DNA of 64,000 nucleotides from Solirubrobacteraceae bacterium (GCA_052147535.1 JBKQKK010000154.1:11595-75594); one strand, 5' to 3'. Shown: positions 3,798 to 62,783, numbered from the stretch's first letter. Notes: generated by a model from the letters alone, not told the origin. Program-made: numbers and translations.

Positions 3798-4604
3798 GTG
3801 ACGCAGGTCAAGACCAGACGGGCGTCTAGCGAATCCGTCCAGAAGCTGTGGGAGCAGTACCGCGCATCGGGGGACGCGCGTCTACGCGACCAGCTTGTTC
3901 TGACGCTCGCGCCGATGGTCAAGTACATCGTTTACCGCAAGGTTCGTGAGATCCCGGCGCGGTGTGAAGTCGAGGACTTTATCTCCTGCGGTCTCGAGGC
4001 GCTGCTGCGATCGATCGATCGCTATGACCCGGCGCGTGGCGCAACGCTCGAGCAGTATTCGTGGACGCGGATCCACGGCGCCGTGCTCGATGAGCTGCGT
4101 CGCAACGATTGGGCGCCTCGCTCGCTGCGGCGCTGGGAGCGCGACATCTCTCGCGCGCGTGAACGCTTCATCGCCCTGCACGGGCGCGCTCCGACGCGCG
4201 CCGAACTGGGCGAGGCCGTCGGTCTCACGCCTGCCGAGCTGGACAAGTGGCTCGAGGACATCGGGCGCTCTGATATCGGCTCGCTGAACGTGCTCGTGAT
4301 GGGGGAGGATGACACGACCACCGAGCGGATCGACACGATCGCCAGCGGGAACGCAGACGCTGACCCGGAACGCAGGGCGATGCGCGACAGCGCCAAGGAG
4401 CGTTTCCGCGTCGCTTTCGAAACCCTTCCGGAGCGCGAGCGGCAGGTGGCTGTGCTCCTGTACGTGCACAACCTGACCCTGCGCGAGATCGGCGAGGCGC
4501 TGGGTGTCACGGAGAGTCGCGTCTGCCAGATCCACAGCGCTCTGCGCCGGCGTCTGCGCGAGAAGCTCGCTGCCGACGATCAGCTGTTTAGCGAGGTCGC
4601 GTAG
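3798..4604 (+). CDS. fliA: FliA/WhiG-family sigma factor (sigma-28)
   Basis: RDQLV..LAPMVKYIV, GAVLDELRRNDWAPRSLR, LTLREIGEALGVTESRVCQIHS; AAGGAG RBS before GTG. Confidence 0.95.
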   Translation: MTQVKTRRASSESVQKLWEQYRASGDARLRDQLVLTLAPMVKYIVYRKVREIPARCEVEDFISCGLEALLRSIDRYDPARGATLEQYSWTRIHGAVLDELRRNDWAPRSLRRWERDISRARERFIALHGRAPTRAELGEAVGLTPAELDKWLEDIGRSDIGSLNVLVMGEDDTTTERIDTIASGNADADPERRAMRDSAKERFRVAFETLPERERQVAVLLYVHNLTLREIGEALGVTESRVCQIHSALRRRLREKLAADDQLFSEVA

Positions 4605-5497: not shown

Positions 5498-6193
5498 ATG
5501 GACGTCGGTCTTTACATCGCCGCTCAGGGGATGCTCGCTGAGCAAGCCCGCCAGGACAACCTGGCCAACGATCTGGCGAACGCCTCGACCCCCGGCTACA
5601 AGGCGACGACCGCTGTTCAGCAGAGCTTCGGGGCGATTCTCCTGTCCAACGCGCAAAACGGCCAGGCGGTCGGGACGATCGATACCGGTGTGAGGATCGC
5701 CAAGCAGGTCGTCGACCTGGCGCCTGCGCCGCTGCAGGCAACTGGCGACCCGCTCGATTTCGCGATCGCGGGATCCGGATTCTTCGCCGTGCGGACGGCG
5801 CAGGGTGTGCAGTACACGCGCAACGGGCAGTTCAGCTCGAGCAGCCAGGGGTTGCTGGTGGACCAGTACGGCGATCAGGTCCTAGCTCAGAACGGCGCAC
5901 CGATCGCAGTGGGCGCGAAAGGCACGGTGCCGACTTCGGCGCTCGGCGTGTTCAACGTTCCAAACGCGAAGGAGATCGGCAATAACAACTTCACCGGCGC
6001 CGCGGGCGGCGCGGCGACCGGAACCGTCGAGTCGGGCCAGCTCGAGCAGTCGAGTGTCGATCCGATCGAGACGTTGATCGGGATGACCTCATCGCTGCAG
6101 GCTTACCAGGCCGGCCAGAAGGCAATCGAGACGATCAGCCAGGCGATGGCGCAGTCGGCTGGAACAGTCGGACTGATACCGGGAGGAGCCTGA
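5498..6193 (+). CDS. Flagellar basal-body rod protein, FlgF/FlhO-like
   Basis: LANDLANASTPGYK, TGDPLDFAIAGSGFFAV, YTRNGQF, GQLEQSSVD. Confidence 0.9.
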   Translation: MDVGLYIAAQGMLAEQARQDNLANDLANASTPGYKATTAVQQSFGAILLSNAQNGQAVGTIDTGVRIAKQVVDLAPAPLQATGDPLDFAIAGSGFFAVRTAQGVQYTRNGQFSSSSQGLLVDQYGDQVLAQNGAPIAVGAKGTVPTSALGVFNVPNAKEIGNNNFTGAAGGAATGTVESGQLEQSSVDPIETLIGMTSSLQAYQAGQKAIETISQAMAQSAGTVGLIPGGA

Positions 6194-6195
6194 TC

Positions 6196-6930
6196 ATGCT
6201 CGCAGGACTGTACGCAGCCGCCTCCGGGATGGAGGCGCAGCAGACACAGATGGATGCGCTGTCGAACGACATCGCCAACGCCGATACGCCCGGCTATCAG
6301 TCGACGGTGGTGGGCTTCAGCGACCTGCTGTCCACGAGCGGCGGTTACAGCGGCGCAGATCCGGCCCCGACAGGCACCGGAGCGGTGGCCAAGCTGATTG
6401 GTTACAGCCAGGCTCAGGGGCCGATTGCGCCGACCGGCCAGCCGCTGGACGTGGCGATCGAAGGGCAGGGCTACATCGAGGTCCGCCAGGCGAACGGCAC
6501 GATCGGCCTGACACGTAACGGCACGCTCCAGCTCAACGCCCGCGGCCAGCTCACGACCAACCTCGGAATGCCGCTGTCGCCCTCGATCACGGTGCCGCCG
6601 GGCACCTCGCCTTCGCAGCTGAGGATTGGTTCGGATGGGGTCGTGTCGGTGGGCGGGCGCAAGATCGGGACGATCAACCTCGTGAGCGTTCCCGCGCCGG
6701 ATCAGATGCTTGCTAGTGGCGGTGGCGTGTTCAGCGCGACCGCTGCGAGCGGGGCGATCAAGCGCGTAACCGGGACGACGCTGCAGCAGGGATCGCTCGA
6801 GCAGTCAAACGTCGACCTCGACGAGGCGATGACGACGATGATGATGGCTCAGCAGGGCTATGACCTCGCCAGCAAGGCAATCTCCTATGAGCAGCAGATG
6901 GGCCAGATCGCGTCCACCGTCAAGCAATGA
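6196..6930 (+). CDS. flgG: Flagellar basal-body rod protein FlgG-like
   Basis: LSNDIANADTPGY, TGQPLDVAIEGQGYIEV, LTRNGTL, QGSLEQSNVDL. Confidence 0.85.
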   Translation: MLAGLYAAASGMEAQQTQMDALSNDIANADTPGYQSTVVGFSDLLSTSGGYSGADPAPTGTGAVAKLIGYSQAQGPIAPTGQPLDVAIEGQGYIEVRQANGTIGLTRNGTLQLNARGQLTTNLGMPLSPSITVPPGTSPSQLRIGSDGVVSVGGRKIGTINLVSVPAPDQMLASGGGVFSATAASGAIKRVTGTTLQQGSLEQSNVDLDEAMTTMMMAQQGYDLASKAISYEQQMGQIASTVKQ

Positions 6931-7352
6931 GCTTGATCTCGCCAACCGCCGCTGCAACCGCCGCGCAGCTCAGCTCGACCGGCGTGGCGCCGATCAGCGA
7001 CGGCGACCTGCCAGCGAGCGTCCGCAACGGCTCGCCGGCCGCCAAGCAGGCTTATGCCGAGGGGCTCGCGTTCGAGCAGGTGCTCGTCAACGAGCTCGCC
7101 CAGCAGCTCACCGCCACCGTGTCCGGCAGCGACAGCGACAGCGACGGCAGCTCGACGGACGCTACCGCCGACGGCGGTAACGATGGCACGAGCGACGCGA
7201 CGACCGGATTGCTCGGCTCGGACCCGGCCGGCAGCCTGTACGCGAGTCTGATCCCACAGGCGCTGAGCGACAGCATCATGTCGAGCGGCGGCCTCGGTAT
7301 CGCCTCGGAGATCGCGGGGGCCCTCGATCCAACTCTGGAGGGTAAGTCGTGA
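6927..7352 (+). CDS. Rod-binding (FlgJ N-terminal-like) protein
   Basis: AFEQVLVNEL...YASLIPQALSDSIMSSGGLGIASEI; no muramidase domain. Confidence 0.75.
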   Translation: MSLISPTAAATAAQLSSTGVAPISDGDLPASVRNGSPAAKQAYAEGLAFEQVLVNELAQQLTATVSGSDSDSDGSSTDATADGGNDGTSDATTGLLGSDPAGSLYASLIPQALSDSIMSSGGLGIASEIAGALDPTLEGKS

Positions 7353-7882
7353 GCGCCGTCGCCGACCCTCGGTCCGGCGACCTGCTGTTCACCGGTGACG
7401 TGCTGGAGCACCTCAATGCCCAGCTCGCGGCGGCACGGCATCTGCTCGGCCTGGTGCTCGAGCAGGGCGCGGCGATCAGGCGCCGGGACGTGCAGCAGGT
7501 CGTGCGTCTTGCGGGCATGCTGCAAGCGGAGATGGAGCGTCGCCACCTGTTGGAGGAGGTGCGGATGCGCTTGCTGCGCCGCGCCGGAGAGAAGCTTGCG
7601 ATGGCGCCAGAGCTGGTGACGCTGACGATGCTCGAGGGGTTGATGGAGCGGGACGCCGCCGGCGACACGCGCCGGCGCAGCGCGGAGCTGCGCGGGCTAT
7701 TGGTCGAGATCCAGCGTGAGCACACCATCAATCGCACGCTGATGGCCCAGGAGCTCGCGTTTCTCGATCACCTACTCCGTCTGACCAACGGCGCCGGCGG
7801 CTACGGCGCCGGGGGCGACCATGCCTCGACCGGCACGCCTGGCGGTGTCATGCGCAGACGAGTGTTCGACGTGGAGGCCTAG
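7349..7882 (+). CDS. flgN: FlgN-family export chaperone
   Basis: Helical 177 aa with EHTINRTLMAQELAFLDHLL; directly before flgK. Confidence 0.8.
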   Translation: MSAVADPRSGDLLFTGDVLEHLNAQLAAARHLLGLVLEQGAAIRRRDVQQVVRLAGMLQAEMERRHLLEEVRMRLLRRAGEKLAMAPELVTLTMLEGLMERDAAGDTRRRSAELRGLLVEIQREHTINRTLMAQELAFLDHLLRLTNGAGGYGAGGDHASTGTPGGVMRRRVFDVEA

Positions 7883-7886
7883 GCGC

Positions 7887-9245
7887 TTGTACATCTCGAC
7901 TTTCACGCCGTTGCAGTCAGCGCTCAGCGGGATCGAGGTCGCCCAGCAGGAGTTGGATACGACCAGCAACAATATCGGGAACGCCGACACGCCTGGATAC
8001 ACGGAGGAGTCGGTCAACCTGTCAGCGGCGCTGCCACTGACGATCGCCGGCCCCAACGGCGCCGGCATGCAGGTCGGCACCGGCGTCGACGCCGACTCGA
8101 TCGCCAGCGCCCGCAGCCAGTATCTGGATACCTCTTATCGCGCCCAGAACGGTGCTTCCAACTACGCCTCGACCGAGCAGACCTACATCAATCAGGCGCA
8201 GTCGGCCCTGGACGAACCGTCGACCAGCGGCATCTCCACCCAGCTGCAGACGTTTTGGAGCTCATGGAACAGTCTCGCCAACAACCCGAACAGCACTGCC
8301 GCCAAGCAGGCGGTGGTGAGCGACGGACAAGCACTGGTGAGCGCGATCCAGCAGCTCAATGGAGAGCTCTCGCCCGCCGATCCGACTGATCCCTCGTCGG
8401 TCCAGAGTCAGGCCACGACCCAGTACAACACGCTCACGGGCAGCGGTGGTCAGGTCGAGAGTGACGCGCAGGCGATCGCCACTCTGTACCCCGAGATCCA
8501 GCAGGCGACCGCGGCGGGGGAGAACCCCAACGATCTGCAGGACAAGTACAACCAGGCGCTGGACGATCTCTCCTCGCTGGCGAACGTGTCTGTCCAGACC
8601 GACCAGACCGGGACCGTCAGCGTCTACTTCGGTGACGCCAGCTCGCCACTGGTCAGCGTCACGTCCACGGGCCAGTCGACGGTCGACTGGCCCCAGACGC
8701 TGACCTCTGCGGCAGGCGGGACGCTCGGAGCGCTGATGGACCTGACCGACGACTCAACCCCGGGGCCGATCGCCGGATACCAGCAACAGCTCAACACTTT
8801 TGCTCAGGATCTGGCCGACAGCGTCAACAGCTTGTCGCCCAGCCAGCCGTTCTTCACCTACGACCAGTCCGACGATGCGGCCGCCACGCTAGCTGTCGAC
8901 CCGACGGTGGTCAGCGACCCAAGCCAGGTCCAATCCTCGTCCACCGATGGTGCCGCTGGTGACGTGGCCGCGTCGATCTCCAACCTGAGCGGCGGCGAGG
9001 CCGATCAGGACTACGCCGGACTGGTCGCGATGATCGGGAGCGGCGCACAGTCGGCCGACAGCAACGCGACGATGCAGCAGGCGCTGAGCACTGCGATCAG
9101 CAATCAGCGCCAGAGCGTCGAGGGCGTCGATCTTTCACAGGAGGAAACCAACGTGATCCAGGAGCAGCAGGCCTACCAGGCCTCGGCTCAGGTCATGAAC
9201 GTGTTCAACACGATGATCAATACGCTGATCGAGCAGGTCGGCTGA
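7887..9245 (+). CDS. flgK: Hook-associated protein FlgK
   Basis: TTG start with GGAGG RBS; SALSGIEVAQQELDTTSNNIGNADTPGY and QRQSVEGVDLSQEETNVIQEQQAYQASAQVM. Confidence 0.95.
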   Translation: MYISTFTPLQSALSGIEVAQQELDTTSNNIGNADTPGYTEESVNLSAALPLTIAGPNGAGMQVGTGVDADSIASARSQYLDTSYRAQNGASNYASTEQTYINQAQSALDEPSTSGISTQLQTFWSSWNSLANNPNSTAAKQAVVSDGQALVSAIQQLNGELSPADPTDPSSVQSQATTQYNTLTGSGGQVESDAQAIATLYPEIQQATAAGENPNDLQDKYNQALDDLSSLANVSVQTDQTGTVSVYFGDASSPLVSVTSTGQSTVDWPQTLTSAAGGTLGALMDLTDDSTPGPIAGYQQQLNTFAQDLADSVNSLSPSQPFFTYDQSDDAAATLAVDPTVVSDPSQVQSSSTDGAAGDVAASISNLSGGEADQDYAGLVAMIGSGAQSADSNATMQQALSTAISNQRQSVEGVDLSQEETNVIQEQQAYQASAQVMNVFNTMINTLIEQVG

Positions 9246-10162
9246 TGACCCAGAGAATCACACCGCAGATGCAGTCCGGCGTGATGCTGGCAAACATCAA
9301 CAACGACCTAGCCGCACTCGACAACACGCAGAACCAGCTGTCCACGGGCATGAAGATCCTGCAGCCATCCGATGATCCAGCCGGCATGGCTCTGTCGCTG
9401 CAGCTGAGCGGACAGATCTCGGCGCTGAACAACTATTCGGCAAACGTCAACGACGGTACCGCATGGGCCAACACCGCCAGTGCCGCGCTGCAGAGCATTC
9501 AGCAGATCACACAGACGGCTCGAACGCTGGTCGTCGAGGCGAACGACGGAACTATGAACGCTTCGGACCAGCAAACGATCAGTACCGAGATCTCACAGTT
9601 GGTCGACCAGATCAAGGATACGGCCAACACCCAGTACGACGGTATGTACATCTTCTCCGGATCCCAGACCACCACCGCGCCCTACCAGAGCGCGACGGGC
9701 GACGTGTACAACGGCGACAGCGGTTCGGTCACGCGCACGATCGGACCCGGGACCACGACCGCGGTGAACGCGCAACTCTCCTCGGTTCTCGGCCAAGGCC
9801 AGCAGGCCAACGGAGGACAGGGAGACGGGCTACTGCTCAACACGCTGGAGACGATTGGGCAGGACGTGACGGGCGGGACCAGCACGGATCTCGGGAACGA
9901 CCTGAGCAGCCTCGATTCGAACATCAGCAGCCTCGAGTCCCTTCAAGCCCAGGTTGGCTCCGTACAGGACCAGCTATCGATGGCCTCTTCGCGTCTGATG
10001 TCGTTTCAAACCGCTGATCAGACCCAGCTGGCGAACACGGAGGACGTTGATATGGGTTCGGCGTCGATCAATTTCTCGACCGAGCAGGCGGCCTACAGTG
10101 CAGCGCTACAGTCCGGTGCGCAGATCATCCAGACGTCCCTGCTGAACTTCCTACACAGTTAG
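9245..10162 (+). CDS. flgL: Hook-associated protein FlgL
   Basis: QLSTGMKILQPSDDP, ANTQYDGMYIFSG, EQAAYSAALQSGAQIIQTSLLNFL. Confidence 0.95.
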   Translation: MTQRITPQMQSGVMLANINNDLAALDNTQNQLSTGMKILQPSDDPAGMALSLQLSGQISALNNYSANVNDGTAWANTASAALQSIQQITQTARTLVVEANDGTMNASDQQTISTEISQLVDQIKDTANTQYDGMYIFSGSQTTTAPYQSATGDVYNGDSGSVTRTIGPGTTTAVNAQLSSVLGQGQQANGGQGDGLLLNTLETIGQDVTGGTSTDLGNDLSSLDSNISSLESLQAQVGSVQDQLSMASSRLMSFQTADQTQLANTEDVDMGSASINFSTEQAAYSAALQSGAQIIQTSLLNFLHS

Positions 10163-10166
10163 CCTC

Positions 10167-10613
10167 GTGATCACGATTGAAAGCACCCGCTTCGGCACCG
10201 TGGAGATCGCGCCGGAAAGCGTGGTCGAGTTCCCAGACGGCCTGATCGGTCTTGGCGGCCGCCGGTATGCGCTGCTGGCCACGGATGCGGGCAGCCCGTT
10301 CTTGTGGTTGCATTCGCTCGAGGATCCCAAGATCGCGTTGCCCGTTACCAACCCCCACCGATTCTTCTCTGACTTCTCGGTCGAACTGAACGACGAGGAC
10401 GCGGCGCGCCTCGAGTTCGACGACGCCGCCTCCGTGGACGTGTACGTCACCGTACGCGCAGCGCCGGCTCTGGAGGATTTCACCGCCAACCTGAAGGCGC
10501 CGATCCTGATCCGCGCCGGCCGCGCACACCAGGTCATCAACCAGGCTAAAGGGGTCAGCCTACGCGCGCAGCTGTTCAAAGCTGAAGCCACGGAATCCGA
10601 GCAGGCGTGCTGA
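10167..10613 (+). CDS. fliW: Flagellar assembly factor FliW (CsrA antagonist)
   Basis: STRFG, FPDGLIG, PFLWLHSLEDP, TANLKAPILI. Confidence 0.95.
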   Translation: MITIESTRFGTVEIAPESVVEFPDGLIGLGGRRYALLATDAGSPFLWLHSLEDPKIALPVTNPHRFFSDFSVELNDEDAARLEFDDAASVDVYVTVRAAPALEDFTANLKAPILIRAGRAHQVINQAKGVSLRAQLFKAEATESEQAC

Positions 10614-48116: not shown

Positions 48117-49019
48117 ATGCTCGTCCTGGCCGCCGTCAAGATCACAACGCTGCAGGCGATAATCCTCGGGGCCCTGCAGGGCGTGACCGAGCTGTTTCCG
48201 ATCTCCAGCCTCGGCCACACGGTGATCTTCCCGAACCTGTTCGGGTGGCAGAACATTGTCGCCTGGCAGTCGCAGCCGGAGTCCCCGTGGCTGGCGCTCG
48301 TGGTGATGCTGCACGTCGGCAGCGCGGTTGGGCTGCTGATCTACTTCTGGCGCGACTGGATCGAGCTGATCAAGGCGTTCTTCGCGACCCTCACGAAGCG
48401 GCGTATCGAGACGCCGACCGAGCGACTCGCGTGGCTGATCATCTGCGCGACGATCCCGGTCGGGATCCTCGGGCTGCTGCTCGAGCACGTTGTCCGAGTC
48501 GCGCTCGCCAAGCCACTGTATGCGTCGATCTTCCTCGTGGTCAATGGCGTCATCCTGCTCGGTGCCGAGCGGCTGCGGCGGCGCAGCGAGGTCCGTGCGC
48601 TCGCGGCTCGCGAGGGAGCCAAGAGCGACGGTTCTCGCAAGCTCGACACGCTCGGTTTCAAGGAGGCGGCGGGGATCGGAGTCGCGCAGTCGACGGCCCT
48701 GATCGCCGGGATCAGCCGCGACGGGATGTGCATGAGCACCGGTCTCGTGCGGGGTCTCGATAACGCCGACGCGGCGCGCTTCGCGTTCCTGCTCGCGACG
48801 CCGCCGATCCTGCTGGCGGGGCTGCTGAAGTTGAGCGATCTCACCGGTCCTCTGGGCGACGGCGTGCGAGGCCCGGCGGTGATCGCAGCTGCCTCCGCTG
48901 CGGTCACAGCCGTGTTCACCGTCCACTTCCTCACGCGCTGGTTCAAGACGCGCACGCTCACCCCGTTCGGGATCTACTGCGTCGTGTTCGGGCTGGCGAT
49001 GGTGGCGTATAACGCTTGA
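48117..49019 (+). CDS. uppP: Undecaprenyl-diphosphate phosphatase (BacA)
   Basis: LQAIILGALQGVTELFPISSLGH, IAGISRDG, RFAFLLATP. Confidence 0.95.
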   Translation: MLVLAAVKITTLQAIILGALQGVTELFPISSLGHTVIFPNLFGWQNIVAWQSQPESPWLALVVMLHVGSAVGLLIYFWRDWIELIKAFFATLTKRRIETPTERLAWLIICATIPVGILGLLLEHVVRVALAKPLYASIFLVVNGVILLGAERLRRRSEVRALAAREGAKSDGSRKLDTLGFKEAAGIGVAQSTALIAGISRDGMCMSTGLVRGLDNADAARFAFLLATPPILLAGLLKLSDLTGPLGDGVRGPAVIAAASAAVTAVFTVHFLTRWFKTRTLTPFGIYCVVFGLAMVAYNA

Positions 49020-49081
49020 CGCAAGCTGTCGTCGCAGAATGTACCTGTTGCTACCAGTTGCGGCTTGTGACGCTCAGGTGA

Positions 49082-49708
49082 TCAGTTGAACCGCACTTTG
49101 CCGTTCGACCTCGCGCGAGCCTGAGCGCGCTCGACGAACTCCAGGCGTTTGAGCGCGGCGCGCAAGAGGCGCGCCAGCAACGCCAGCCGCGCGTTCTCCG
49201 ACCGCAGGTCCAGCAGCCCCTGTTTGGCGTCCAGGCCGAAGTCGACGGTCGCCGCCATCTCGTAGGCGCTCAGCTCCGCCAGTTCGCTGTCCTGCGGATC
49301 GCGGTCGGTGGCGCGGCGCACGAGGTCGCCGTAGACCGCGTGGGCGGCTTCGGCGAGCGCCTCGTCCGGCGGCTCGTCATGGTCACCGAGGAACTCGACG
49401 ATCCCGGCCGGATAGGCAAGGTGTCCCTGGCGCTCGAGCACTCGGAAAGGGCGCGTGCCGCGCGTGAGCAGATTCATCCGGCCGTCCTCCATCCGCTCCA
49501 GCACGCGCTCGATCCTGCAGGCGCAGCCGATCTCCCGTAAACCGTCATCGGACAACCAGAGGATCCCGAACTCGCTCTCTCGCGCCAGGCACTCGTTGAT
49601 CATCGTCTTGTAGCGCTCCTCGAAGATGTGCAGCGGCACCGCTTCGGTGGGCAGCGCCACGAGGCCCAGCGGAAACAGCGGGAAGTCGTGCGATAGGCGG
49701 TCGGGCAC
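49082..49708 (-). CDS. LON substrate-binding-domain protein
   Basis: FPLFPLGLVALP, PLHIFEERYKTMI, GTRPFRV; no ATPase or protease domain. Confidence 0.9.
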   Translation of the reverse strand: MPDRLSHDFPLFPLGLVALPTEAVPLHIFEERYKTMINECLARESEFGILWLSDDGLREIGCACRIERVLERMEDGRMNLLTRGTRPFRVLERQGHLAYPAGIVEFLGDHDEPPDEALAEAAHAVYGDLVRRATDRDPQDSELAELSAYEMAATVDFGLDAKQGLLDLRSENARLALLARLLRAALKRLEFVERAQARARSNGKVRFN

Positions 49709-49727
49709 CGTCGGTGCGCTCAGCCGC

Positions 49728-50648
49728 TCACGCGTGCCGGGCGGTCAGCAGCAGGTTGTAAAAGATCGCGGGTGGCAGGTGCGGTTCGAGTGCGCGCTCG
49801 TCCAGTCGCTGCAGCATCAGGTAGCCGTGAAACGCGTAGCGCCGCCAGAGCATCGGCACGTCGTCGGGGTTGGCGGTCGCCTCCAGCACCCGGTTGAACC
49901 ATCCGAACCAGCTCGCCGTGAGCTCCTCGCCTCGCACGTCGATGTCGACGAAGCCCGCGCGCCGGGAGAAGGTGTCGAGATCGCGGGGAGTGAAGGCATG
50001 GATGTCGACGAAATGCTCCATGTCGTGGTAAATCTCCTCAGCCGAGCCCGGCTGCGCCGGTGCCGGGGCTCGGCGGGCGTGCAGCAGCGCGCGCCAGGCC
50101 GGCGCCAGCAGCCTGGCCGACTGCTTGGGGACCCGCGCGAGCCTGTCGCCGAACCGCGAAGGCTCGCCGGCGAACGCAAGCCGTCCACCGGGTGCGAGCA
50201 CGCGGTGGAACTCGGCGAAAGCGCGCCGCAGGTCTGGCAGGTGGTGCAGCACCGCGTGTCCGAGCACGAGATCGAAGCTCTGGTCTCCGAACGGCAGCCG
50301 CTCCGCGTCGGCGCGTGCCGCGCGCACCCGCGTCAGGCCCAGGCGCGCGGCGTTCTCGCTCAGAGTGCTCACCATGCCAGGCGAGATGTCGGTGCAGGTC
50401 GCTTCGTGCAGGATGCCCGCCTGCACCAGGTTGAGGCTGAAGTAGCCGGTTCCGGCGCCGATCTCGAGAGCGCGATCGTAGCCGGCGTCGAGCTCGCGCC
50501 CGACCAGTTTGCGCATTTTGCCGAGCACCTGGTCCTGCCCGGTCTGGCCGAAGTCGATGCCCCACTTGGCGTCGTAGGTCGACGCTGCGACGTCGTGGTA
50601 GCGGGTGTTGACATCGCGGATCTCGTCGGGGGTGCGCAACGCGGGCAT
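49728..50648 (-). CDS. Class I SAM methyltransferase, Rv3038c-like
   Basis: YHDVAASTYDAKWGIDF, YDRALEIGAGTG, GHAVLHHLPD, AFAGEPS, FYNLLLTA, recalled as characteristic of mycobacterial Rv3038c. Confidence 0.85.
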   Translation of the reverse strand: MPALRTPDEIRDVNTRYHDVAASTYDAKWGIDFGQTGQDQVLGKMRKLVGRELDAGYDRALEIGAGTGYFSLNLVQAGILHEATCTDISPGMVSTLSENAARLGLTRVRAARADAERLPFGDQSFDLVLGHAVLHHLPDLRRAFAEFHRVLAPGGRLAFAGEPSRFGDRLARVPKQSARLLAPAWRALLHARRAPAPAQPGSAEEIYHDMEHFVDIHAFTPRDLDTFSRRAGFVDIDVRGEELTASWFGWFNRVLEATANPDDVPMLWRRYAFHGYLMLQRLDERALEPHLPPAIFYNLLLTARHA

Positions 50649-50675
50649 TATCGAGATCACATTACCCTGTCGTAC

Positions 50676-51443
50676 ATGGCTGTGAACGATTACGTTCAGC
50701 AGGACCAGCCCGCCGGGGTGCCGCCGCTGTCGCTGACTGGCGAGCGCACACTCCCCGACGTGCCGCTGGAGAACTACTGGTTCCGCCGTCATCTGGCCGT
50801 ATACGAGTGGATCGCGACGCGCGTCGCTGGCGGCCGCGTGCTCGACATGGCCTGCGGGGAGGGGTACGGCGCGGCCGTGATGGCGCGCTCGGCGGCAAGC
50901 GTCGTCGGTCTCGACGCGAACCTCGAGGCGCACGAGCACGCGCGCCTGCGCTACCAGTCGGCGAACCTGACCTTCGAGCGGGGAATGGTCGAGAACTGGG
51001 GCGAGCCCGGCAGCTTCGACGCGGTCGTGTTCCTACAGACGATCGAGCACGTGTTCGATCCGCCCGCGGTGCTCGCCCACCATCGCTCGCTGCTGGCACC
51101 CGGCGGCAGCATCTACGTCTCGACACCGAACCTGCTGACGATCGCGCCGCGGGGCGCCGAGAAATCCGCCAACCCGTGGCACATCAGGGAGTACCGCGCC
51201 GACGAGTTCCAGCGCCTCTGCGCCGCGGCGTTCCCGTCGGTTCAGATGCTCGGCCTGTTCCACGCGCGCAAGCTGCGAATCCACGCGCTCGCACTGGTGC
51301 TCGGCTGGGACCGTGTGCACCACGCGCTTGGGATCACGGACCGCTTCTATGACCGCTTCACGCCGGCGATCGCCACGCGCGACTTCGCGTTGCGCGGAAC
51401 GCGGCTCGACAAGGCGCTCGATTTCCTCGCGGTCTGCCGGTGA
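50676..51443 (+). CDS. Class I SAM methyltransferase, Rv3030-like
   Basis: LTGERTLPDVPLENYWFRRH, ACGEGYG, QTIEH, STPN, NPWHIREY. Confidence 0.9.
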   Translation: MAVNDYVQQDQPAGVPPLSLTGERTLPDVPLENYWFRRHLAVYEWIATRVAGGRVLDMACGEGYGAAVMARSAASVVGLDANLEAHEHARLRYQSANLTFERGMVENWGEPGSFDAVVFLQTIEHVFDPPAVLAHHRSLLAPGGSIYVSTPNLLTIAPRGAEKSANPWHIREYRADEFQRLCAAAFPSVQMLGLFHARKLRIHALALVLGWDRVHHALGITDRFYDRFTPAIATRDFALRGTRLDKALDFLAVCR

Positions 51444-52909
51444 CGGTGAGCGCATCACAACCCCGTTGGCCGGCGAGCGCGTCAGGAGCCGGTCAGGCGG
51501 TGGGGGCACTACGCCCTCGCGAGGAACCCGGCGAGCTGGCGATCGTCCTGCACACCCACATGCCCTACGTGGAGGGCTTCGGGAGCTGGCCGTTCGGGGA
51601 GGAGTGGCTGTGGGAGGCGATCGCCACCTGCTACCTGCCGTTGCTCGACCAGCTGGGACGCGCGCCGCTGACGCTCTCGCTGACGCCGGTGCTGTGCGAT
51701 CAACTCGGCTCACGCGCGGCGATCGATCGCTGCCTGCAGTTCCTGCGAGACGTTCGCCCCGCCTCGCACACGCTGGACATCGCAGTCGCCCGCAGGGCGG
51801 GAGACGATCAGGCGATCGCCGAGCTCGAGCGCTCGGCTGCGGAGTACGCGGCGGCCGCCGAGCGGCTCGCGCAGCTGCAGCGATCAGGCGGCGGGCTGAT
51901 GGCGGCGCTCGGCGAGCACGCCACGTGGACCTCCTCTGCGACTCACGCGATCCTGCCGCTGGTCGTGACGGATGCCGGGATCGCGCTGCAGCTGCACACC
52001 GGAATCAGCTCCCACCGGCGCCGGTTTGACAACTGGGAAGGCGGTTTCTGGCTGCCGGAATGCGCGTATGCGCCGTGGCTGAACGTGCCTTTGGAGCAGT
52101 CCGGCGTGAGTGCGACGTGCGTCGAGCTGACAAACTTCTTCGGACTCGGCGATCGCCGTCACTTGCAAGCGCTGCTGACCGACGAAGGGCCGCTGCTGTG
52201 GCCGGTGGATCGCCAGGTCATGGCGCTCCCCTGGGGCAAGGACGGCTATCCGGCGCGGGCCGCCTACCGCGATTACCGCGCGCTCACTCCGCGCCACCAT
52301 CATGTCCTGGGTAACGACGGCGAACCGTACGACTTCAGGCGGGCACTGGCGCAGACGGTGCTCGATGCGCGCGACTTCGTGCACCGCGTCGGTGAGCGCG
52401 TGGCGCAGGGCGGCGTGTGTGTGTGCGCGCTGGACACCGAGCTGCTCGGCCACTGGTGGTACGAGGGGGTGCACTGGTTGTCGGCGGTGATCGACGAGGC
52501 CCAGCGGAAGGGGCTCGCGCTGAGCACCCTCGATGATGCTCGTGAGCGGCACAAGCCTGCTCCGGCGGGTGCGAACCTGCCGGTCACGAGCTGGGGAATT
52601 GGCAACGATCTGCGCACGTGGAGCGGGCCCGCCAGCGCCGCGTTCGCGTGGCAGATGCGCAAGGCGGAATTGACAGTGCTCGCAAAGGGCGCGCGACCCA
52701 GCGACCGCGCGCTGCGCGAGCTGATCGCGTTGCAGGCGAGCGACTGGGCTTTTCTACACTCCTACGGCTGGGCCGCCGACTACCCGCGCGAGCGGGCCGA
52801 CGGCCACGCCGCGGAGCTGCACCGGGCGCTCGCCGGCGGCGCGCCGGGCGCGAGCGGAGATCAGGCGCTGCGCACTCTGGCGCCGCAGCTGGTTGGCTGG
52901 GAAGGCTGA
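51440..52909 (+). CDS. GH57 1,4-alpha-glucan branching enzyme, Rv3031-like
   Basis: VLHTHMPYV, WPFGEEWL, nucleophile WLPECAY, acid/base DTELLGHWWYEG, LQASDWAF. Confidence 0.92.
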   Translation: MTVSASQPRWPASASGAGQAVGALRPREEPGELAIVLHTHMPYVEGFGSWPFGEEWLWEAIATCYLPLLDQLGRAPLTLSLTPVLCDQLGSRAAIDRCLQFLRDVRPASHTLDIAVARRAGDDQAIAELERSAAEYAAAAERLAQLQRSGGGLMAALGEHATWTSSATHAILPLVVTDAGIALQLHTGISSHRRRFDNWEGGFWLPECAYAPWLNVPLEQSGVSATCVELTNFFGLGDRRHLQALLTDEGPLLWPVDRQVMALPWGKDGYPARAAYRDYRALTPRHHHVLGNDGEPYDFRRALAQTVLDARDFVHRVGERVAQGGVCVCALDTELLGHWWYEGVHWLSAVIDEAQRKGLALSTLDDARERHKPAPAGANLPVTSWGIGNDLRTWSGPASAAFAWQMRKAELTVLAKGARPSDRALRELIALQASDWAFLHSYGWAADYPRERADGHAAELHRALAGGAPGASGDQALRTLAPQLVGWEG

Positions 52910-52979
52910 TGGCGCGCGCGCCCGCTCGCGCGCGCCCGCTCGCGTCCCCTCCGCGGGCGCGCTGGCGTGCGCCCCCCGG

Positions 52980-53001
52980 CGCGGGCGGCGCGCCGCCCGC
53001 G
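52980..53001. terminator. Perfect GC palindrome between convergent genes
   Basis: CGCGGGCGGCGCGCCGCCCGCG. Confidence 0.55.
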
Positions 53002-53004
53002 CGG

Positions 53005-53682
53005 CTATGACCAGCGGAACGTGAGCGGCGCCTTGCGCATCCTGATCAGGCGTGCGGGCACGCCGCCGACGACCGCGTTGTCCGGAACGTCGTGGGTGAC
53101 CACCGCGTTGGTGCCGATTACCGTGTTGTCCCCGACCTGGACGCCGCGCAGAACGCAGGCGCCGTAGCCCATCCAGACGTTGTTGCCGACGTTCACGTCG
53201 CGCTTGTAGATCCCCTGCAGGCGAACGGGCTCCTCCGTCTGCGCCGTGTGGTGATCGAAGTCGATCAGCATCACGCGGTCGGCGATGATGCACTCGCGCC
53301 CGATCGCGACGTGCTGGTAGCAGGAGATCGTGCATTCCTGACCGAGCACCGACTTGGCGCCGATCGAAACGGTGCCCTCGTGCGCGCGAACCTTGGAGTC
53401 GTGGCCGATCCACACCCAGCGGCCGAGCTCGACGCGGGCGCCGCGGCCGATCTCGAACTTAACGCCCGGGCAGATGAAGCACAACCCGTCGGTCACCAGC
53501 CGCCCGCGCCAGCGTAGCTTCAGGTAGACCCACTTTGAGATCAGCCGCACGTATCCCCACCGGAACATGTTGTGCTTGCGGGCGAAACGCAGGAACTCGA
53601 ATGGTCCGCCCCGATGCGGCCGAGGCGGCGTGCGCAGCTCCTGCGTCGGCGCCGGCGCCTTATTCACACTGGTCAATGACAC
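53005..53682 (-). CDS. Hexapeptide-repeat acyltransferase, Rv3034c-like
   Basis: LGRWVWIGHDSKVRAHEG, MLIDFDH, QGIYK, VVGGVPAR. Confidence 0.9.
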   Translation of the reverse strand: MSLTSVNKAPAPTQELRTPPRPHRGGPFEFLRFARKHNMFRWGYVRLISKWVYLKLRWRGRLVTDGLCFICPGVKFEIGRGARVELGRWVWIGHDSKVRAHEGTVSIGAKSVLGQECTISCYQHVAIGRECIIADRVMLIDFDHHTAQTEEPVRLQGIYKRDVNVGNNVWMGYGACVLRGVQVGDNTVIGTNAVVTHDVPDNAVVGGVPARLIRMRKAPLTFRWS

Positions 53683-53715
53683 CGCCGAATCGTAATCGTC
53701 ATCATGCTCATCCCG

Positions 53716-54681
53716 ATGACCGATGCAACCAAATCACTTGCAAGCAGGCTTTTGGACGGAGACCGACGCGCGCTTGCGCGCGGGATCACGCTCGTGGAGG
53801 ACGACACGCCCGAGGGCTGGGATCTGATCCGCGAGATCTATCCGCATAGCGGCCGCGCCGCGATCATCGGTCTCACAGGCCCTCCCGGCGCGGGCAAGTC
53901 GACGCTGATCGGAGCGCTGACGGCGCTGCAGCGCGCTTGTGGTCGGTCGGTCGCGGTGCTCTCGATCGACCCCTCCTCGCCGTTCACCAAGGGAGCGCTG
54001 CTCGGCGACCGGATCCGCCTCACCGACCACTTCCTCGACCCCGGCGTGTTCATCCGCTCGATGGCCAATCGCGGCGCGCTCGGCGGGCTCAGCGAGGCGA
54101 CCCTCCAGGCAGCGCTGCTGATGGACGCGTCGGGCCGCGACGTGGTGCTGCTCGAGACGGTCGGCGTCGGCCAGGCTGAGATCGACATCATCGACCACGC
54201 CGACACGGTCGTATTGGTCCTGGTGCCGGGCTCGGGTGACTCGATTCAGGCGCTCAAGGCCGGCGTGATGGAGATTCCCGACATCATCGTCATCAACAAG
54301 GCCGAGCACGCGCTCGCCGACACGATGATCCGCGAGATCCGCAGCGTGCTGGCGCTGGGCCCGCGCGAAGGCTGGCGGGTTCCGGTGCTCAAGACCGAGG
54401 CGTTGCGCGGCGCGGGCATCGAGGAGCTCGCCGACGCGCTTGCTGAGCATCATGCCTTCATCGAGGCGGAGGGTACGCTGTCCGAGCGGCGGCGGCGCAA
54501 CCTCCGCAACGAGGTGCTCGCGATCGCGACGGCGCGCATGCGCCGCGAGCTGGAGGCCGCGATCGCCGCCGATCCGCAGGTCAAGGAACTGCTCGACCGT
54601 GTGGTCGCCCGCGAGCTCGATCCGGCCAGTGCCGCCACCGAGATCCTCCGCGCGCGCACCGGGTTGGCGCACTCGAGCTAA
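53716..54681 (+). CDS. meaB: Methylmalonyl-CoA mutase-associated GTPase MeaB
   Basis: GLTGPPGAGKST, IDPSSPFTKGALLGDRIR, RSMANRG, ETVGVGQ, VINKA. Confidence 0.95.
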   Translation: MTDATKSLASRLLDGDRRALARGITLVEDDTPEGWDLIREIYPHSGRAAIIGLTGPPGAGKSTLIGALTALQRACGRSVAVLSIDPSSPFTKGALLGDRIRLTDHFLDPGVFIRSMANRGALGGLSEATLQAALLMDASGRDVVLLETVGVGQAEIDIIDHADTVVLVLVPGSGDSIQALKAGVMEIPDIIVINKAEHALADTMIREIRSVLALGPREGWRVPVLKTEALRGAGIEELADALAEHHAFIEAEGTLSERRRRNLRNEVLAIATARMRRELEAAIAADPQVKELLDRVVARELDPASAATEILRARTGLAHSS

Positions 54682-58779: not shown

Positions 58780-59187
58780 ATGCCCTCCGCCACCGAGAAG
58801 AAGATCCGTGTTGTCGTAGCGAAGCCCGGCCTCGACGGGCACGATCGCGGCGCCAAGATCATTGCCCGTGCGCTGCGTGACGCGGGCATGGAAGTGATCT
58901 ACACGGGTCTGCACCAGACGCCCGAGCAGATCGTCGAAACCGTCATCCAAGAGGATGCCGATGCCGTCGGTCTATCGATTCTGTCGGGTGCGCACATGAC
59001 GCTCGTGCCGCGGATCCTGACCCTGCTCAAGGAGCAGGGTGTGGACGACGTCGTCGTGATCGTGGGGGGGACGATCCCCGCCGAGGACGTCGCCGAACTG
59101 AAGTCGCTCGGCGTCGCCGCGGTGTTCACGCCGGGGGCGTCGACGGAACTCGCGATCGACTTCATCCGCGGCGCGGTCCGCGCGTAG
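58780..59187 (+). CDS. Stand-alone cobalamin-binding subunit of an acyl-CoA mutase
   Basis: [31 protein letters not shown]. Confidence 0.95.
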
Positions 59188-59269
59188 TGACACACCCGGG
59201 CGGCCGATTGGATCGTCGATCGATCGCTACCACCCCGCTCTGTTCAAGGCAATTCCTTAGGAGGCACCT

Positions 59270-60061
59270 TTGAAGATCTGCGTCCTGGTCAAAGAGGTAC
59301 CGGACGCCGCCGTCGAGAAGAAGATCAACCCCTCGACGGGGCGTATGGACCGATCAGGTGAAAAGAACCTGAACCCGTATGACCAACAAGCGATCGAGGC
59401 TGCGATGCAGCTTCGCGAGGGTGGCGTCGTGAAGGTCGACGACATCGTCGCTGTGACGATGGGTCCCGAGACGGCCGTGCGCGTGCTCCACAAGGCCGTG
59501 TCGCTCGGCGCTGACCGCTCGCTGCACCTGACCGATGCGAGCCTTGCCGGCTCCGACGTCGCAGCGACCGGCTACGCGCTCTCGAAGGCGCTCGAAAAGG
59601 AGCAGCCAGACCTCGTGCTGCTCGGCCAGCAATCCGATGACGGCGAGTGCTACACGATCGGCGCGGTCGTCGCCGACTGGCTCGAGATGCCGTCGATCAC
59701 GCAGGTGATCAAACTCGACGTCGAAGGCGACGCACTGATCTGCGAGCGTCAGGCGGAGTATGGCTACGACACCGTCAAGGTCGAGTTGCCCGCTGTGATC
59801 TCCGTCGGGGATGCGATCAACGAGCCCCGTTACCCGTCGCTGAAATCGATCATGGGCGCCAAGAAGAAGCCGCTTCAGACCGTCTCCGCCGCGGACATCG
59901 GGATCGATCCAGAGATGGTCGGCGCCGAGGGCTCCCGCGTGCACTGCACCGAGTTCCTGGACCCGCCTGCCAAGGCAGCCGGTCAGATCATCGAGGACGA
60001 AGACACCAACGACACGGTCGCGAAGATCGTCGCCTGGCTCGAGGAAAGGAAGCTCATCTAA
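59270..60061 (+). CDS. etfB: Electron transfer flavoprotein beta subunit
   Basis: KICVLVKEVPD, NPYDQQAIE, LGQQSDDG, INEPRYPSL. Confidence 0.96.
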   Translation: MKICVLVKEVPDAAVEKKINPSTGRMDRSGEKNLNPYDQQAIEAAMQLREGGVVKVDDIVAVTMGPETAVRVLHKAVSLGADRSLHLTDASLAGSDVAATGYALSKALEKEQPDLVLLGQQSDDGECYTIGAVVADWLEMPSITQVIKLDVEGDALICERQAEYGYDTVKVELPAVISVGDAINEPRYPSLKSIMGAKKKPLQTVSAADIGIDPEMVGAEGSRVHCTEFLDPPAKAAGQIIEDEDTNDTVAKIVAWLEERKLI

Positions 60062-61044
60062 TGTCCGACGTTCTGACCTACGTCCTCCATTACGAGGGCG
60101 CGTTCAACAAGAACTCGCTCGGAGCCGTGTCCGAGGGCGCCGCGCGTGCGGCCGACGTCGGCGGCGAGTGCCACGCTGTCGTGGTCGGCGGCGCTGACCT
60201 GACCGATGCGCTCTGCACCACGCTCGGCGAGTACGGCGCGACCAAGGTCTTCCGTGCCAAGGGGCCGGAGGGTCTCGCGCAGCCGGTCGTCGACGTGATG
60301 AACACGATCATCGAGCAGCACGGGCAGAACTACGCGCTGTTCGGTGGCGGTCTGCTCGGCTTCGAGATCGGCGCGGGACTCGCGGCGCGCCGGCGCGCGG
60401 GCGTCACGATGGAGGTCACGGCGATCCACGTCGAGGGCGGCCAGCTGGTCGCTGAGCGTCCGATCCTGGGCGACTCCAAGCTCTCGCAGTCTCACTACAA
60501 CCACGGCCTCGGGATCATCGTCGGGCGCATCAACGCGTTCGAGATCAAGCAGGCCGGCAGCGGCCCGGCTGAGGTCATCGACGTCGAGGTCGAGTACTCG
60601 CCGTTCTCCACCAAGTCGACGGTTCTGAAGCGCGGCGAGCAGCGCGGCGAGGACGTTGACATCGAGGGCGCCGACATCCTGATCGCCGGCGGCCGTGGCC
60701 TCGGCAAGCCCGAGGGTTATCAGACCTGCCAGGAGCTGGCGGGTGCATTCGGTGCCAACACCGCCGTTGCGGCGACGCGCGCGGTCGTCGATGCCGGCTG
60801 GTTCCCGTATGCAACACAGATCGGTCAGACCGGCAAGACGGTCGCGCCGAAGCTGTATCTCGCGGTCGGCATCTCCGGCGCGATCCAGCACAAGGTCGGC
60901 ATGGCGAGCTCGGAGAACATCGTCGCGATCAACAAGGACGCGAACGCTCCGATCTTCGAGTTCTCCGACCTCGGGATCGTCGGCGATCTGAACAAGATCG
61001 TTCCCAAGCTGACCGACGCGATCAAAGCCAAGAAGGGTTCGTAG
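60061..61044 (+). CDS. etfA: Electron transfer flavoprotein alpha subunit
   Basis: [53 protein letters not shown]; TAATG overlap with etfB. Confidence 0.96.
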
Positions 61045-61046
61045 CA

Positions 61047-62783
61047 ATGGCGAGCAACGGCAAGCGGTCGTACGCCCCGAACGAGTTCCCACCTCCGGTA
61101 GATCCGCAGAAGGAGTTCATCAAGCGCGGCCTTGACCCCGAGGACGAGATCATCGAGGTCGGCGTCGTGATCGTCGGCGGGGCGACCGCCGGGCTCGCGA
61201 CGGCCAACCGGCTCCTGCAGTTGCTCGCGGATGATCCGGAGACGATGGAGAAGCTCGGCGAGGTTCCGGTTGCGATCCTGGAGAAGGCGAAGACGTGCGG
61301 CGCGCACGCGCTGTCCGGCGCCGTGATCCGGCCGGAATCGCTGCACGAGCTATTCCCCGACCTATCACGTGAGGATTGGCGCAAGGAGCGCTTTGCGTTC
61401 GGCGAGGTTAAGAAGGAAGCCGTCTACATGCTCCCGAGCGCGACGGCCAAGCTGAAGATCCCGACCCCGCCGAACTTCAAGAACCACGGCAACGAGATCG
61501 TGTCGGTCGCGGCACTCGCCCGCTACCAGCAGCGCCTCGCCGAGGAGGCCGGGGCGTACGTCCTGACCGAGACGGCGGGGATGCAGCTGGTCGTGGACGA
61601 CGGCGCAGTGGTCGGCGTCCGCTCGGGCGATAAGGGACGCGGCAAGGAGAACGAGCAGCTCGGCAACTTCGAGCCCGGCGCCGACATCAAGGCGCAGTAC
61701 ACGGTCCTGGCGGAAGGCTGCTGGGGCCATCTGACTGGTGCTGCGATCAAGGAGTTCAACCTCGGCGACGGCAAGGAGCCGCAGGTCTGGGAGCTCGGGG
61801 TCAAGGAGGTCTGGAAGGTCCCAAAGCCGCTGGACCGACTGATCCACACGATCGGCCCGTGGCCGCTGAAGCTGTCCGCCAAATACGGCCAGATCGGCGG
61901 GACCTGGCTTTACCCGATGAGGGACGAGAGCACCGGGGACGATCTCGTCTCGATCGGGTTCGTGGTCGATCTCGAGTACGCCGACGCGACCACGTCCGCG
62001 CACGATCTGCTGCAGCAGTTCAAGCTGCATCCGCTCGTGAAGGGAATCCTCGAGGGAGGCGAGCGCGTGGCCTGGGGCGCGAAGGCGCTGCCGGCCGGTG
62101 GCTACTGGTCGATGCCGAAGCTCTCGATGCCGGGTGCCGTGATCGTCGGTGACGCAGCGGGGATGGTCGACACGGTGGCGCTGAAGGGCGTGCATCATTG
62201 CGTCACCTCGGGCAGGCTCGCCGCCGAGGCGATCTACAACTCGCTCAAGACGGGCGCGCCGCTGAGTGCGTACGAGGATGCGATCGAGAACTCCTCGGTC
62301 GGCAAGGAGATGTACCAGGTCCGCAACACCCGCCAGCCGTTCCAGAAGGGCTTCATCAGGGGAGCTCCGATGGTCAACATGGCGATCATGACCAAGGGCA
62401 AGATCCCCGGTGGGCGCCTGCCATGGCACACGAACGACAGCACTCCGCTGTTCATCGGCGACACCGCTGAGGGCTATCCGAAGCCTGACGGCAAGTACAT
62501 CTTCGACAAGCTCTCGAGCGTCTATATCAGCGGCAACGTCACGCGTGACGACGCCCCCAACCACATCCGGGTCCAGACGAACGTTCCGCGGGAGATCGCG
62601 GAGGGCTGGAAGTGGATGTGCCCGGCGGGCGTGTACGAGATCCCGGACGACGCGCCGGCGACCGGCCCCGTCGAAGTGATCGTCAACTACACGAACTGCG
62701 TGCAGTGCGGGGCGATCACGGCGAAGGGAGGCCGGCTGACACCGCCCGAGGGCGGCGACGGTCCGCTGTACACCGTCACCTGA
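61047..62783 (+). CDS. ETF:quinone oxidoreductase (FixC/FixX-like fusion)
   Basis: [61 protein letters not shown]. Confidence 0.92.

Follow-up and report, generated by a model that had tools for sequence, protein, structure and literature searches.

A compact relative of the mycobacterial methylglucose lipopolysaccharide locus in a Solirubrobacterales genome

Four adjacent genes at positions 49728-53682 of a 64,000-nucleotide stretch from a Solirubrobacteraceae bacterium (GCA_052147535.1, JBKQKK010000154.1:11595-75594; hereafter the window) are, as judged by reciprocal best matches, orthologues of genes in and beside the methylglucose lipopolysaccharide (MGLP) locus of mycobacteria. They encode two S-adenosylmethionine (SAM) methyltransferases (MT1 and MT2), a GH57 protein, and a hexapeptide acyltransferase (AcT), and correspond to the genes at the Rv3038c, Rv3030, Rv3031, and Rv3034c positions, respectively. 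We consider it fairly likely that this set is a core for making a methylated, short-chain-acylated alpha-glucan or oligoglucan without an octanoyl tail, a chemistry that we infer by analogy with the mycobacterial pathway.

Orthology of the four genes

The overlapping open reading frames at 49.6-53.7 kb were resolved into four genes with GC3 profiles (GC content at third codon positions) and domain scans. The set described in the original prediction, an earlier annotation made from the sequence of the window, was recovered in full, including a GH57 protein with both catalytic residues.

49728..50648, minus strand: MT1, class I SAM methyltransferase, 306 aa (ATG at 50648; Methyltransf_11, 8e-26; SAM motif ALEIGAGTG)
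50649..50675: divergent intergenic region from MT1 start to MT2 start, 27 bp, read from the sequence
50676..51443, plus strand: MT2, class I SAM methyltransferase, 255 aa (Methyltransf_23/25)
51440 or 51500 to 52909, plus strand: GH57, 489 or 469 aa (PF03065, Glyco_hydro_57, and PF09210, BE_C)
53005..53682, minus strand: AcT, left-handed beta-helix (hexapeptide) O-acyltransferase, 225 aa (Hexapep)

Here, the GH57 gene has two candidate starts, GTG 51440, which overlaps the MT2 stop, and GTG 51500, and it converges on AcT with 95 bp between them. Among solved structures in the protein data bank (PDB), AcT comes closest to the O-acetyltransferases for maltose and galactosides, with 3HJJ at 1.4e-17. 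Searches with MT1 and MT2 returned generic class I relatives only, and no match to the solved methyltransferases of the methylmannose polysaccharide (MMP) pathway.

Comparison loci were taken from Mycolicibacterium sp. CBMA 234 (L115), M. komossense, Rhodococcus, Nocardia, and Lentzea, and genes received their Rv numbers from their place and neighbours in the CBMA 234 locus, not from direct comparison with H37Rv. The order in that locus is EtfA and EtfB, then methyltransferase, GH57, a family 4 glycosyltransferase (GT4), multicopper oxidase, acyltransferase, PQQ-like, DUF3298, THUMP-like methyltransferase, Methyltransf_11, and enoyl-CoA hydratase, the last at the position of Rv3039c (echA17). 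Since the MT1 counterpart is flanked by the THUMP-like methyltransferase (Rv3037c position) and the enoyl-CoA hydratase (echA17/Rv3039c position), it falls in the Rv3038c slot. Taken as a whole, the arrangement equals the published order from Rv3028c to Rv3039c, and the published MGLP cluster spans Rv3030-Rv3037c (PMC2674218). The multicopper oxidase between the Rv3032- and Rv3034c-type genes (L115, 12839-14377) has three domains, and a sodium:alanine symporter is found in the matching region of another genome (G139).

In forward whole-genome searches of five Actinomycetes genomes, every best match fell within the GH57 cluster, with 196-213 bits for MT1 (runner-up at most 49), 116-137 bits for MT2 (runner-up at most 40), and 104-129 bits for AcT (runner-up at most 65). 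Pairs of best and second scores within these ranges include 204 and 47 bits for MT1, 128 and 40 bits for MT2, and 116 and 46 bits for AcT. The reverse search, a tblastn of the CBMA 234 and Rhodococcus proteins against the window's genome, led from the Rv3030-position protein to MT2 (130 bits, runner-up 55), from the Rv3031-position protein to GH57 (145 bits, with zero second matches), from the Rv3034c-position protein to AcT (117 bits, runner-up 85), and from the Rv3038c-position protein to MT1 (191-204 bits, runner-up 58-70). From these forward and reverse best matches, the four assignments stand; the matches to Rv3038c, Rv3030, Rv3031, and Rv3034c that the original prediction had proposed are thus borne out in both directions, and by a wide margin, in Mycolicibacterium, Rhodococcus, Nocardia, and Lentzea. 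It had further reported the window to be free of a GT4 elongase, an Rv3037c-type methyltransferase, gpgS, and octT, none of which turned up in our searches of the window either.

Distribution and age of the cluster

To survey the cluster, 201 evenly drawn Actinomycetota genomes were used, with synteny read from twenty 20-kb regions of these and from 80 named loci. A GH57 homologue occurs in 52 of the 201 genomes (38 of 143 genera), including all six sampled from Solirubrobacterales. The usual layout in the class Thermoleophilia is a compact MT1|MT2-GH57-GT4-AcT, for which the counts among 48 loci of the class are as follows.

MT2 adjacent to GH57: 43/48
Rv3032-type GT4 directly after GH57: 29/48
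AcT within 12 kb of GH57: 42/48
MT1 within 12 kb of GH57: 43/48
MeaB within 12 kb of GH57, mostly adjoining AcT: 41/48

Among Mycobacteriales loci, the GT4 comes directly after GH57 in 15 of 18, these being all that have enough flanking sequence. Cluster genes with electron transfer flavoprotein (ETF) genes immediately upstream were found in Mycobacterium, Mycolicibacterium, Rhodococcus, Nocardia, Williamsia, Lentzea, and one Kineosporiaceae genome. None of the five GH57 loci inspected from beyond the actinobacteria (Thermus, Chloroflexota, Methylobacter, and Asgard archaea) carries these partners. A chance adjacency of the four genes is rejected on the conservation of the partners, both in 42-43 of the 48 Thermoleophilia loci and in Mycobacteriales.

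Two observations on related loci may be recorded here. In other actinobacterial families, a GalT-like gene (GalP_UDP_transf/DUF4921) lies between GT4 and AcT (L044, 7426-9957; L047, 12193-13185; also L045, L048, and L051), accompanied in one such family by a CoA-ligase-like gene (Succ_CoA_lig); neither of these genes is found at the cluster in mycobacteria or in the window. Moreover, the GH57 orthologues of three genomes (G172:C22, seen in L045/L018; G112:C243, seen in L025; and G140:C161) contain a single in-frame TAA or TAG, which could reflect a pseudogene, a sequencing error, or recoding.

The source of the window (contig C154) is a 5.34-Mb metagenome-assembled genome (MAG) in 415 contigs, 91.6% complete and with 4% contamination. 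Its GH57 nests deep within a clade of 52 Thermoleophilia sequences, and the closest relatives of this protein come from MAGs labelled Solirubrobacteraceae, Solirubrobacterales, and Conexibacteraceae. On this placement, the host, a soil bacterium, belongs to the Solirubrobacterales, an order of the class Thermoleophilia that branches deeply within the actinobacteria, and is no classical actinomycete, which agrees with the earlier view of a non-mycobacterial actinobacterium.

Amino acid identities between the window and Mycobacteriaceae were compared for the cluster genes and for the ETF genes of the same genomes.

MT1: 38-41%
MT2: 38-44%
GH57: 30-37%
AcT: 33-38%
EtfB (comparison): 37-42%
EtfA (comparison): 33-37%

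The cluster genes are therefore no closer to their mycobacterial counterparts than are the ETF genes. In the GH57 tree, the 52 Thermoleophilia sequences form one long-stemmed clade (SH-aLRT 100) that stands apart from the Actinomycetes clade. The composition of the cluster is host-like, with a GC content equal to that of the surrounding genome. Because of the ETF-like divergence, the host-like composition, and the single long-stemmed clade, a recent transfer is argued against, and the best reading is that the four-gene core was inherited vertically in Actinomycetota. Weighing against this are the absence of a GH57 homologue from all nine sampled genomes of other Thermoleophilia orders and the poor support of the deep nodes in the GH57 tree, which would be compatible with an ancient transfer. 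In fact, these same points favour the alternative in which Solirubrobacterales acquired the cluster horizontally from an MGLP-making actinomycete, so that it would tell nothing about the age of the chemistry, as does the patchy spread more generally, with the cluster missing in 149 of the 201 Actinomycetota genomes. Yet identities of 30-44% do not exceed those of the ETF genes, all 52 Thermoleophilia GH57 sequences share one long stem, the GC content matches the genome, and the flanking genes for gamma-glutamyltranspeptidase (GGT), a Lon N-terminal-domain protein (LonN), and MeaB are conserved across the order; any transfer would need to be older than the radiation of the order, and we regard this alternative as improbable.

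The literature has treated MGLP as peculiar to mycobacteria and to a few Nocardia. With true counterparts of four MGLP-locus genes in a deep-branching order, MGLP-type chemistry probably extends far beyond mycobacteria and long predates them. An origin before mycobacteria had already been raised as one possibility in the original prediction, and it fits with both the ETF-level divergence (30-44% versus 33-42%) and the separate deep Thermoleophilia clade of GH57.

The GH57 enzyme and the proposed product

The nucleophile E187 (WLPECAY, codon 52058) and the acid/base D312 (DTELLGHWW, codon 52433) of the window GH57 are invariant across 19 orthologues and align with the catalytic residues of the Thermus glycogen branching enzyme (GBE; PDB ID: 1UFA/3P0B). 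These residues, together with the BE_C domain, would suit a rival explanation in which GH57 is merely the glycogen branching enzyme of the cell and the methyl- and acyltransferases are unrelated neighbours. However, relative to Thermus, the beta5-beta6 insert of 17 residues is missing from the window GH57, as is most of the flexible loop, and these two deletions are common to the orthologues from Mycolicibacterium, Mycobacterium, and Lentzea. Xiang et al. found the beta5-beta6 strands and the flexible loop to be needed for GH57 branching, and reported that M. tuberculosis Rv3031, which is without them, is inactive on amylose and that loop-less GH57 proteins in general have weak or no activity on amylose, proposing a role in other pathways (PMC9291813). 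True branching enzymes of this family combine the loop and strands with a score above the equivalog cut-off, and the window GH57 falls short on both counts, reaching 206 bits with the Thermus branching-enzyme model against a cut-off of 920 bits. Moreover, it is the one GH57 in the whole genome, which also carries two full-length canonical GH13 GlgB genes (C105:14585-16819 and C237:7623-10316, at 909 and 893 bits), and a glycogen role for GH57 is unlikely because of these. Its partners, in addition, are conserved across classes. On the scores, the GlgB pair, and the missing loop and strands, GH57 as a glycogen branching enzyme was rejected, and we give this explanation very little credence. A GlgA-like gene precedes the GlgB on C237, and the presence of two GlgB genes may reflect either a true duplication or the 4% contamination.

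The GT4 that elsewhere follows GH57 is missing here, and the slot between GH57 and AcT is empty in the window and its closest relatives (L032-L034, L052-L055, L059, L061, L064-L067, L073, L078, and L101). In two complete same-genus genomes and one same-family genome, an orthologue that matches the Conexibacter gene at 544-629 bits and 62-71% identity (544-555 bits and 62-65% in the same-genus G045 and G145) lies elsewhere. By these similarities, the GT4 is a gene that moved out of the cluster in the clade of the window and was not lost from the clade. The neighbourhoods of the relocated gene in G045, G145, and G158 are unlike each other and unlike the window's genome, and do not distinguish a loss from an assembly gap in the latter.

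As to the other parts of an MGLP-type pathway, the glucosyl-3-phosphoglycerate synthase model NF010496 (cut-off 262) gives 340 bits for a GT81 synthase at C242:15713-16642, and a GlgM/Rv1212c-type GT4 is found on C148 (TIGR02149, 546 bits); in M. tuberculosis, Rv1212c is reported to make up in part for Rv3032 during MGLP synthesis (PMC2674218). The genome also has an MGH1-like GH63 hydrolase (242 bits), and the sole match in the search for GpgP is a generic histidine-phosphatase. At C354:38622-42482, the MGH1-like GH63 gene, a candidate glucosyl-/mannosylglycerate hydrolase, sits beside two GT4 genes at the contig end, and this may be a compatible-solute locus. The octanoyltransferase OctT (Rv2418c), which its model NF043016 detects in Mycolicibacterium beside rsfS and gpgP (347 bits), was absent from all six Solirubrobacterales genomes searched (342-348 bits in the Mycolicibacterium and Lentzea controls), two of which are complete and from the same genus. 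The genome search for accessory orthologues, proposed as a check in the original prediction, was hence of mixed outcome: Rv3032 and octT gave no orthologue, and the gpgS model gave a match above its cut-off (340 versus 262) whose sugar specificity is not readable from sequence. Its caution that the product might differ from MGLP was well placed, with OctT, the Rv3037c-type methyltransferase, and an in-cluster GT4 all missing.

We picture the pathway, which would be the one that yields MGLP in mycobacteria, as follows. An alpha-1,4-glucan or oligoglucan would be built, possibly on a glucosylglycerate primer from the C242 GT81 synthase. The builder in relatives would be the Rv3032-type GT4, and the window's genome has GlgM-type and GlgA-type synthases. 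The loop-less GH57 might then act by alpha-1,6 transglucosylation or trim the chains in another way, with no part in glycogen branching. MT2, as the Rv3030 type, would O-methylate glucose, at O-6 if the mycobacterial analogy holds, and MT1, as the Rv3038c type, could supply a second kind of methyl group. AcT, with its likeness to maltose acetyltransferases, would place short acyl esters on sugar hydroxyls. The octanoyl tail is expected to be missing because OctT is absent from the six Solirubrobacterales genomes, and the predicted product would be a methylglucan and not a lipopolysaccharide. Behind this lies mycobacterial genetics, in which the elongation of MGLP has been linked to Rv3032 and its 6-O-methylation to Rv3030 (PMC4555173).

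Several results speak against such a polymer. The Rv3032-type GT4 was not found in the 91.6%-complete assembly, where the best match has 85-130 bits and 27-32% identity, and tblastn of the genome likewise gave no counterpart of the Rv3035, Rv3036c, and Rv3037c types (for the last, no match at E<=1e-5 with Mycolicibacterium and Rhodococcus queries). The OctT result above belongs here too, and the GT81 synthase is slightly closer to the solved Rubrobacter mannosyl-3-phosphoglycerate synthase (MpgS) than to mycobacterial GpgS. In mycobacteria themselves, genetic support is limited to Rv3030 and Rv3032, with none for Rv3031, Rv3034c, and Rv3038c; Rv3031 and Rv3034c were assigned to MGLP by context alone, and we found no reported activity for Rv3031. 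The literature searched gave no report of an O-methylglucose polymer from any member of Thermoleophilia, nor a link between MGLP and this class.

Some of these points would suit a different reading, in which the same genes decorate a small molecule or short maltooligosaccharides from glycogen turnover, with no dedicated polymer at all. Examples are a methylated or acetylated glucosylglycerate and a maltose- or trehalose-type solute, with GH57 acting as a short-chain hydrolase or transferase. A dedicated GT4 elongase lies outside the cluster and escaped detection in the assembly, AcT resembles maltose O-acetyltransferases, which use free sugars, the genome has GT81 and GH63 enzymes such as serve compatible-solute metabolism, and loop-less GH57 proteins are weak or inactive on amylose (PMC9291813). 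However, the GT4 comes right after GH57 in 29 of the 48 Thermoleophilia and 15 of the 18 Mycobacteriales loci, the same-genus genomes keep it elsewhere at 62-65% identity to the Conexibacter gene, and the substrate of the orthologous Rv3030 and Rv3032 in mycobacteria is a polymer some 20 residues long (PMC2674218). We judge the small-molecule alternative, which is the main rival, to be unlikely and keep to the methylated and acylated glucan.

In MGLP synthesis, what Rv3031 does is still unassigned, as are the genes behind the short-chain acylations and the second methylation. Here, the cluster is informative, since the conservation of a compact core in so distant a class identifies the genes that form a set and points to Rv3038c, which is outside the published Rv3030-Rv3037c cluster. 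Because the Thermoleophilia unit pairs this gene back-to-back with the Rv3030 type, and is without Rv3037c, Rv3038c is suggested as a conserved second methyltransferase. We found no mention of Rv3038c in the MGLP papers searched, and rv3038c has been reported as essential in M. tuberculosis. A 2026 transposon-sequencing (TnSeq) study places rv3038c, as a gene of unknown function, in the oleic-acid resistome of M. tuberculosis and makes no link to MGLP (PMC13279779). This phenotype would fit, if circumstantially, a gene for a fatty-acid-sequestering polymer. As a more speculative proposal, to which we hold only tentatively, the ancestral polymethylated-glucan unit of Actinomycetota could have comprised an Rv3038c-type methyltransferase divergent from an Rv3030-type methyltransferase, GH57, GT4, and an Rv3034c-type acyltransferase, with Rv3038c and not Rv3037c as the second MGLP methyltransferase; the methylglucan of Solirubrobacterales would then be non-lipidated and might buffer fatty acyl chains in cells without mycolic acids. 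What the window itself contributes is the layout without GT4, the lack of OctT across the order, the deletions that its GH57 has in common with orthologues, and the link to the rv3038c phenotype. More broadly, the core predicts methylated glucans in abundant soil actinobacteria, and its Thermoleophilia versions could serve as simpler enzyme sources, from non-pathogenic organisms, for reconstitution.

Genomic setting and comparison with known systems

Upstream (5') of the four genes lie those for GGT, UppP, and LonN, and downstream (3') those for MeaB, an FAD/BBE oxidase, leucyl aminopeptidase, an HAD-IB hydrolase, and a B12-binding protein, followed by the ETF genes. The other features located in the window are listed below.

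3798-4604: sigma-70-family factor
5498-10613: flagellar block with two rod proteins, FlgK, a flagellin-family protein, and FliW
53704..54681, plus strand: MeaB GTPase, divergent from the acyltransferase (TIGR00750, 331 bits)
59270-60061, plus strand: ETF beta (NCBIfam and open reading frame translation)
60061-61044, plus strand: ETF alpha (NCBIfam and open reading frame translation)
61047-62783, plus strand: ETF-ubiquinone oxidoreductase-like gene, ETF-QO (NCBIfam and open reading frame translation)

The flagellar genes agree with the earlier description of the host as flagellated, and together with the sigma-70-family factor are consistent with a motile Conexibacter-like member of Thermoleophilia. 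Likewise, the ETF genes had been placed about 5.6 kb downstream of the cluster, and the block indeed begins at 59270. ETF genes are directly beside MT2-GH57 in Mycobacteriales, Kineosporiaceae, and several other actinobacterial families, and about 9-10 kb off in several Thermoleophilia loci. The divergent AcT/meaB pair (53005-54681) is typical of Thermoleophilia loci, with the B12-binding protein, ETF, and ETF-QO genes downstream (58780-62783). The esters of MGLP are acetate, propionate, isobutyrate, and succinate; since MGLP bears such short acyl groups, it is conceivable that the linkage of AcT, meaB, and the B12-binding protein is tied to acyl-CoA mutase metabolism.

No sigma-70-like site was found in the 27 bp between MT1 and MT2 (50649-50675), and a scan of 49000-54200 for promoters and terminators gave a single weak site before meaB and zero terminators. 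As 27 bp are too short for two conventional promoters with leaders, the MT1 and MT2 mRNAs are probably leaderless, or else have promoters inside coding regions.

Among known systems, the MGLP locus of M. tuberculosis (PMC2674218, PMC4555173) shares with the window the Rv3030-, Rv3031-, Rv3034c-, and Rv3038c-type orthologues, an MT2-type gene directly upstream of GH57, nearby ETF genes, and, elsewhere in the genome, a GlgM-type (Rv1212c-type) GT4. The GT81 synthase, likewise outside the cluster, is a candidate counterpart of GpgS. In contrast, the window is without an Rv3032-type GT4, the Rv3035, Rv3036c, and Rv3037c types, and OctT; it is compact, with MT1 divergent from MT2 rather than 7-8 kb off, and its ETF genes are 5.6 kb away and not adjacent. 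A closer resemblance is found in the five-gene form of Conexibacter stalactiti KCTC 39840 (L058), where the GGT, LonN, and MeaB flanks and the four genes are all present at 54-67% identity, though the GT4 is kept between GH57 and AcT in the slot that is empty (95 bp) in the clade of the window. The GBEs of Thermus thermophilus and Thermococcus kodakarensis (PDB ID: 1UFA/3P0B and 3N8T) belong to the same fold family as the window GH57 and share with it a C-terminal BE_C domain, the catalytic Glu and Asp, and all five conserved regions. However, the window GH57 is about 32 residues shorter from conserved region III to region IV, where the flexible loop and the beta5-beta6 insert would lie, its score is far beneath the equivalog cut-off, and it has methyltransferase partners, which canonical branching enzymes are without. 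Lastly, the mycobacterial MMP cluster (PMC9883506) is alike in being a cytoplasmic pathway to a polymethylated polysaccharide that combines glycosyltransferases, SAM methyltransferases, and a glycoside hydrolase, but differs in that it uses mannose chemistry and other enzyme families.

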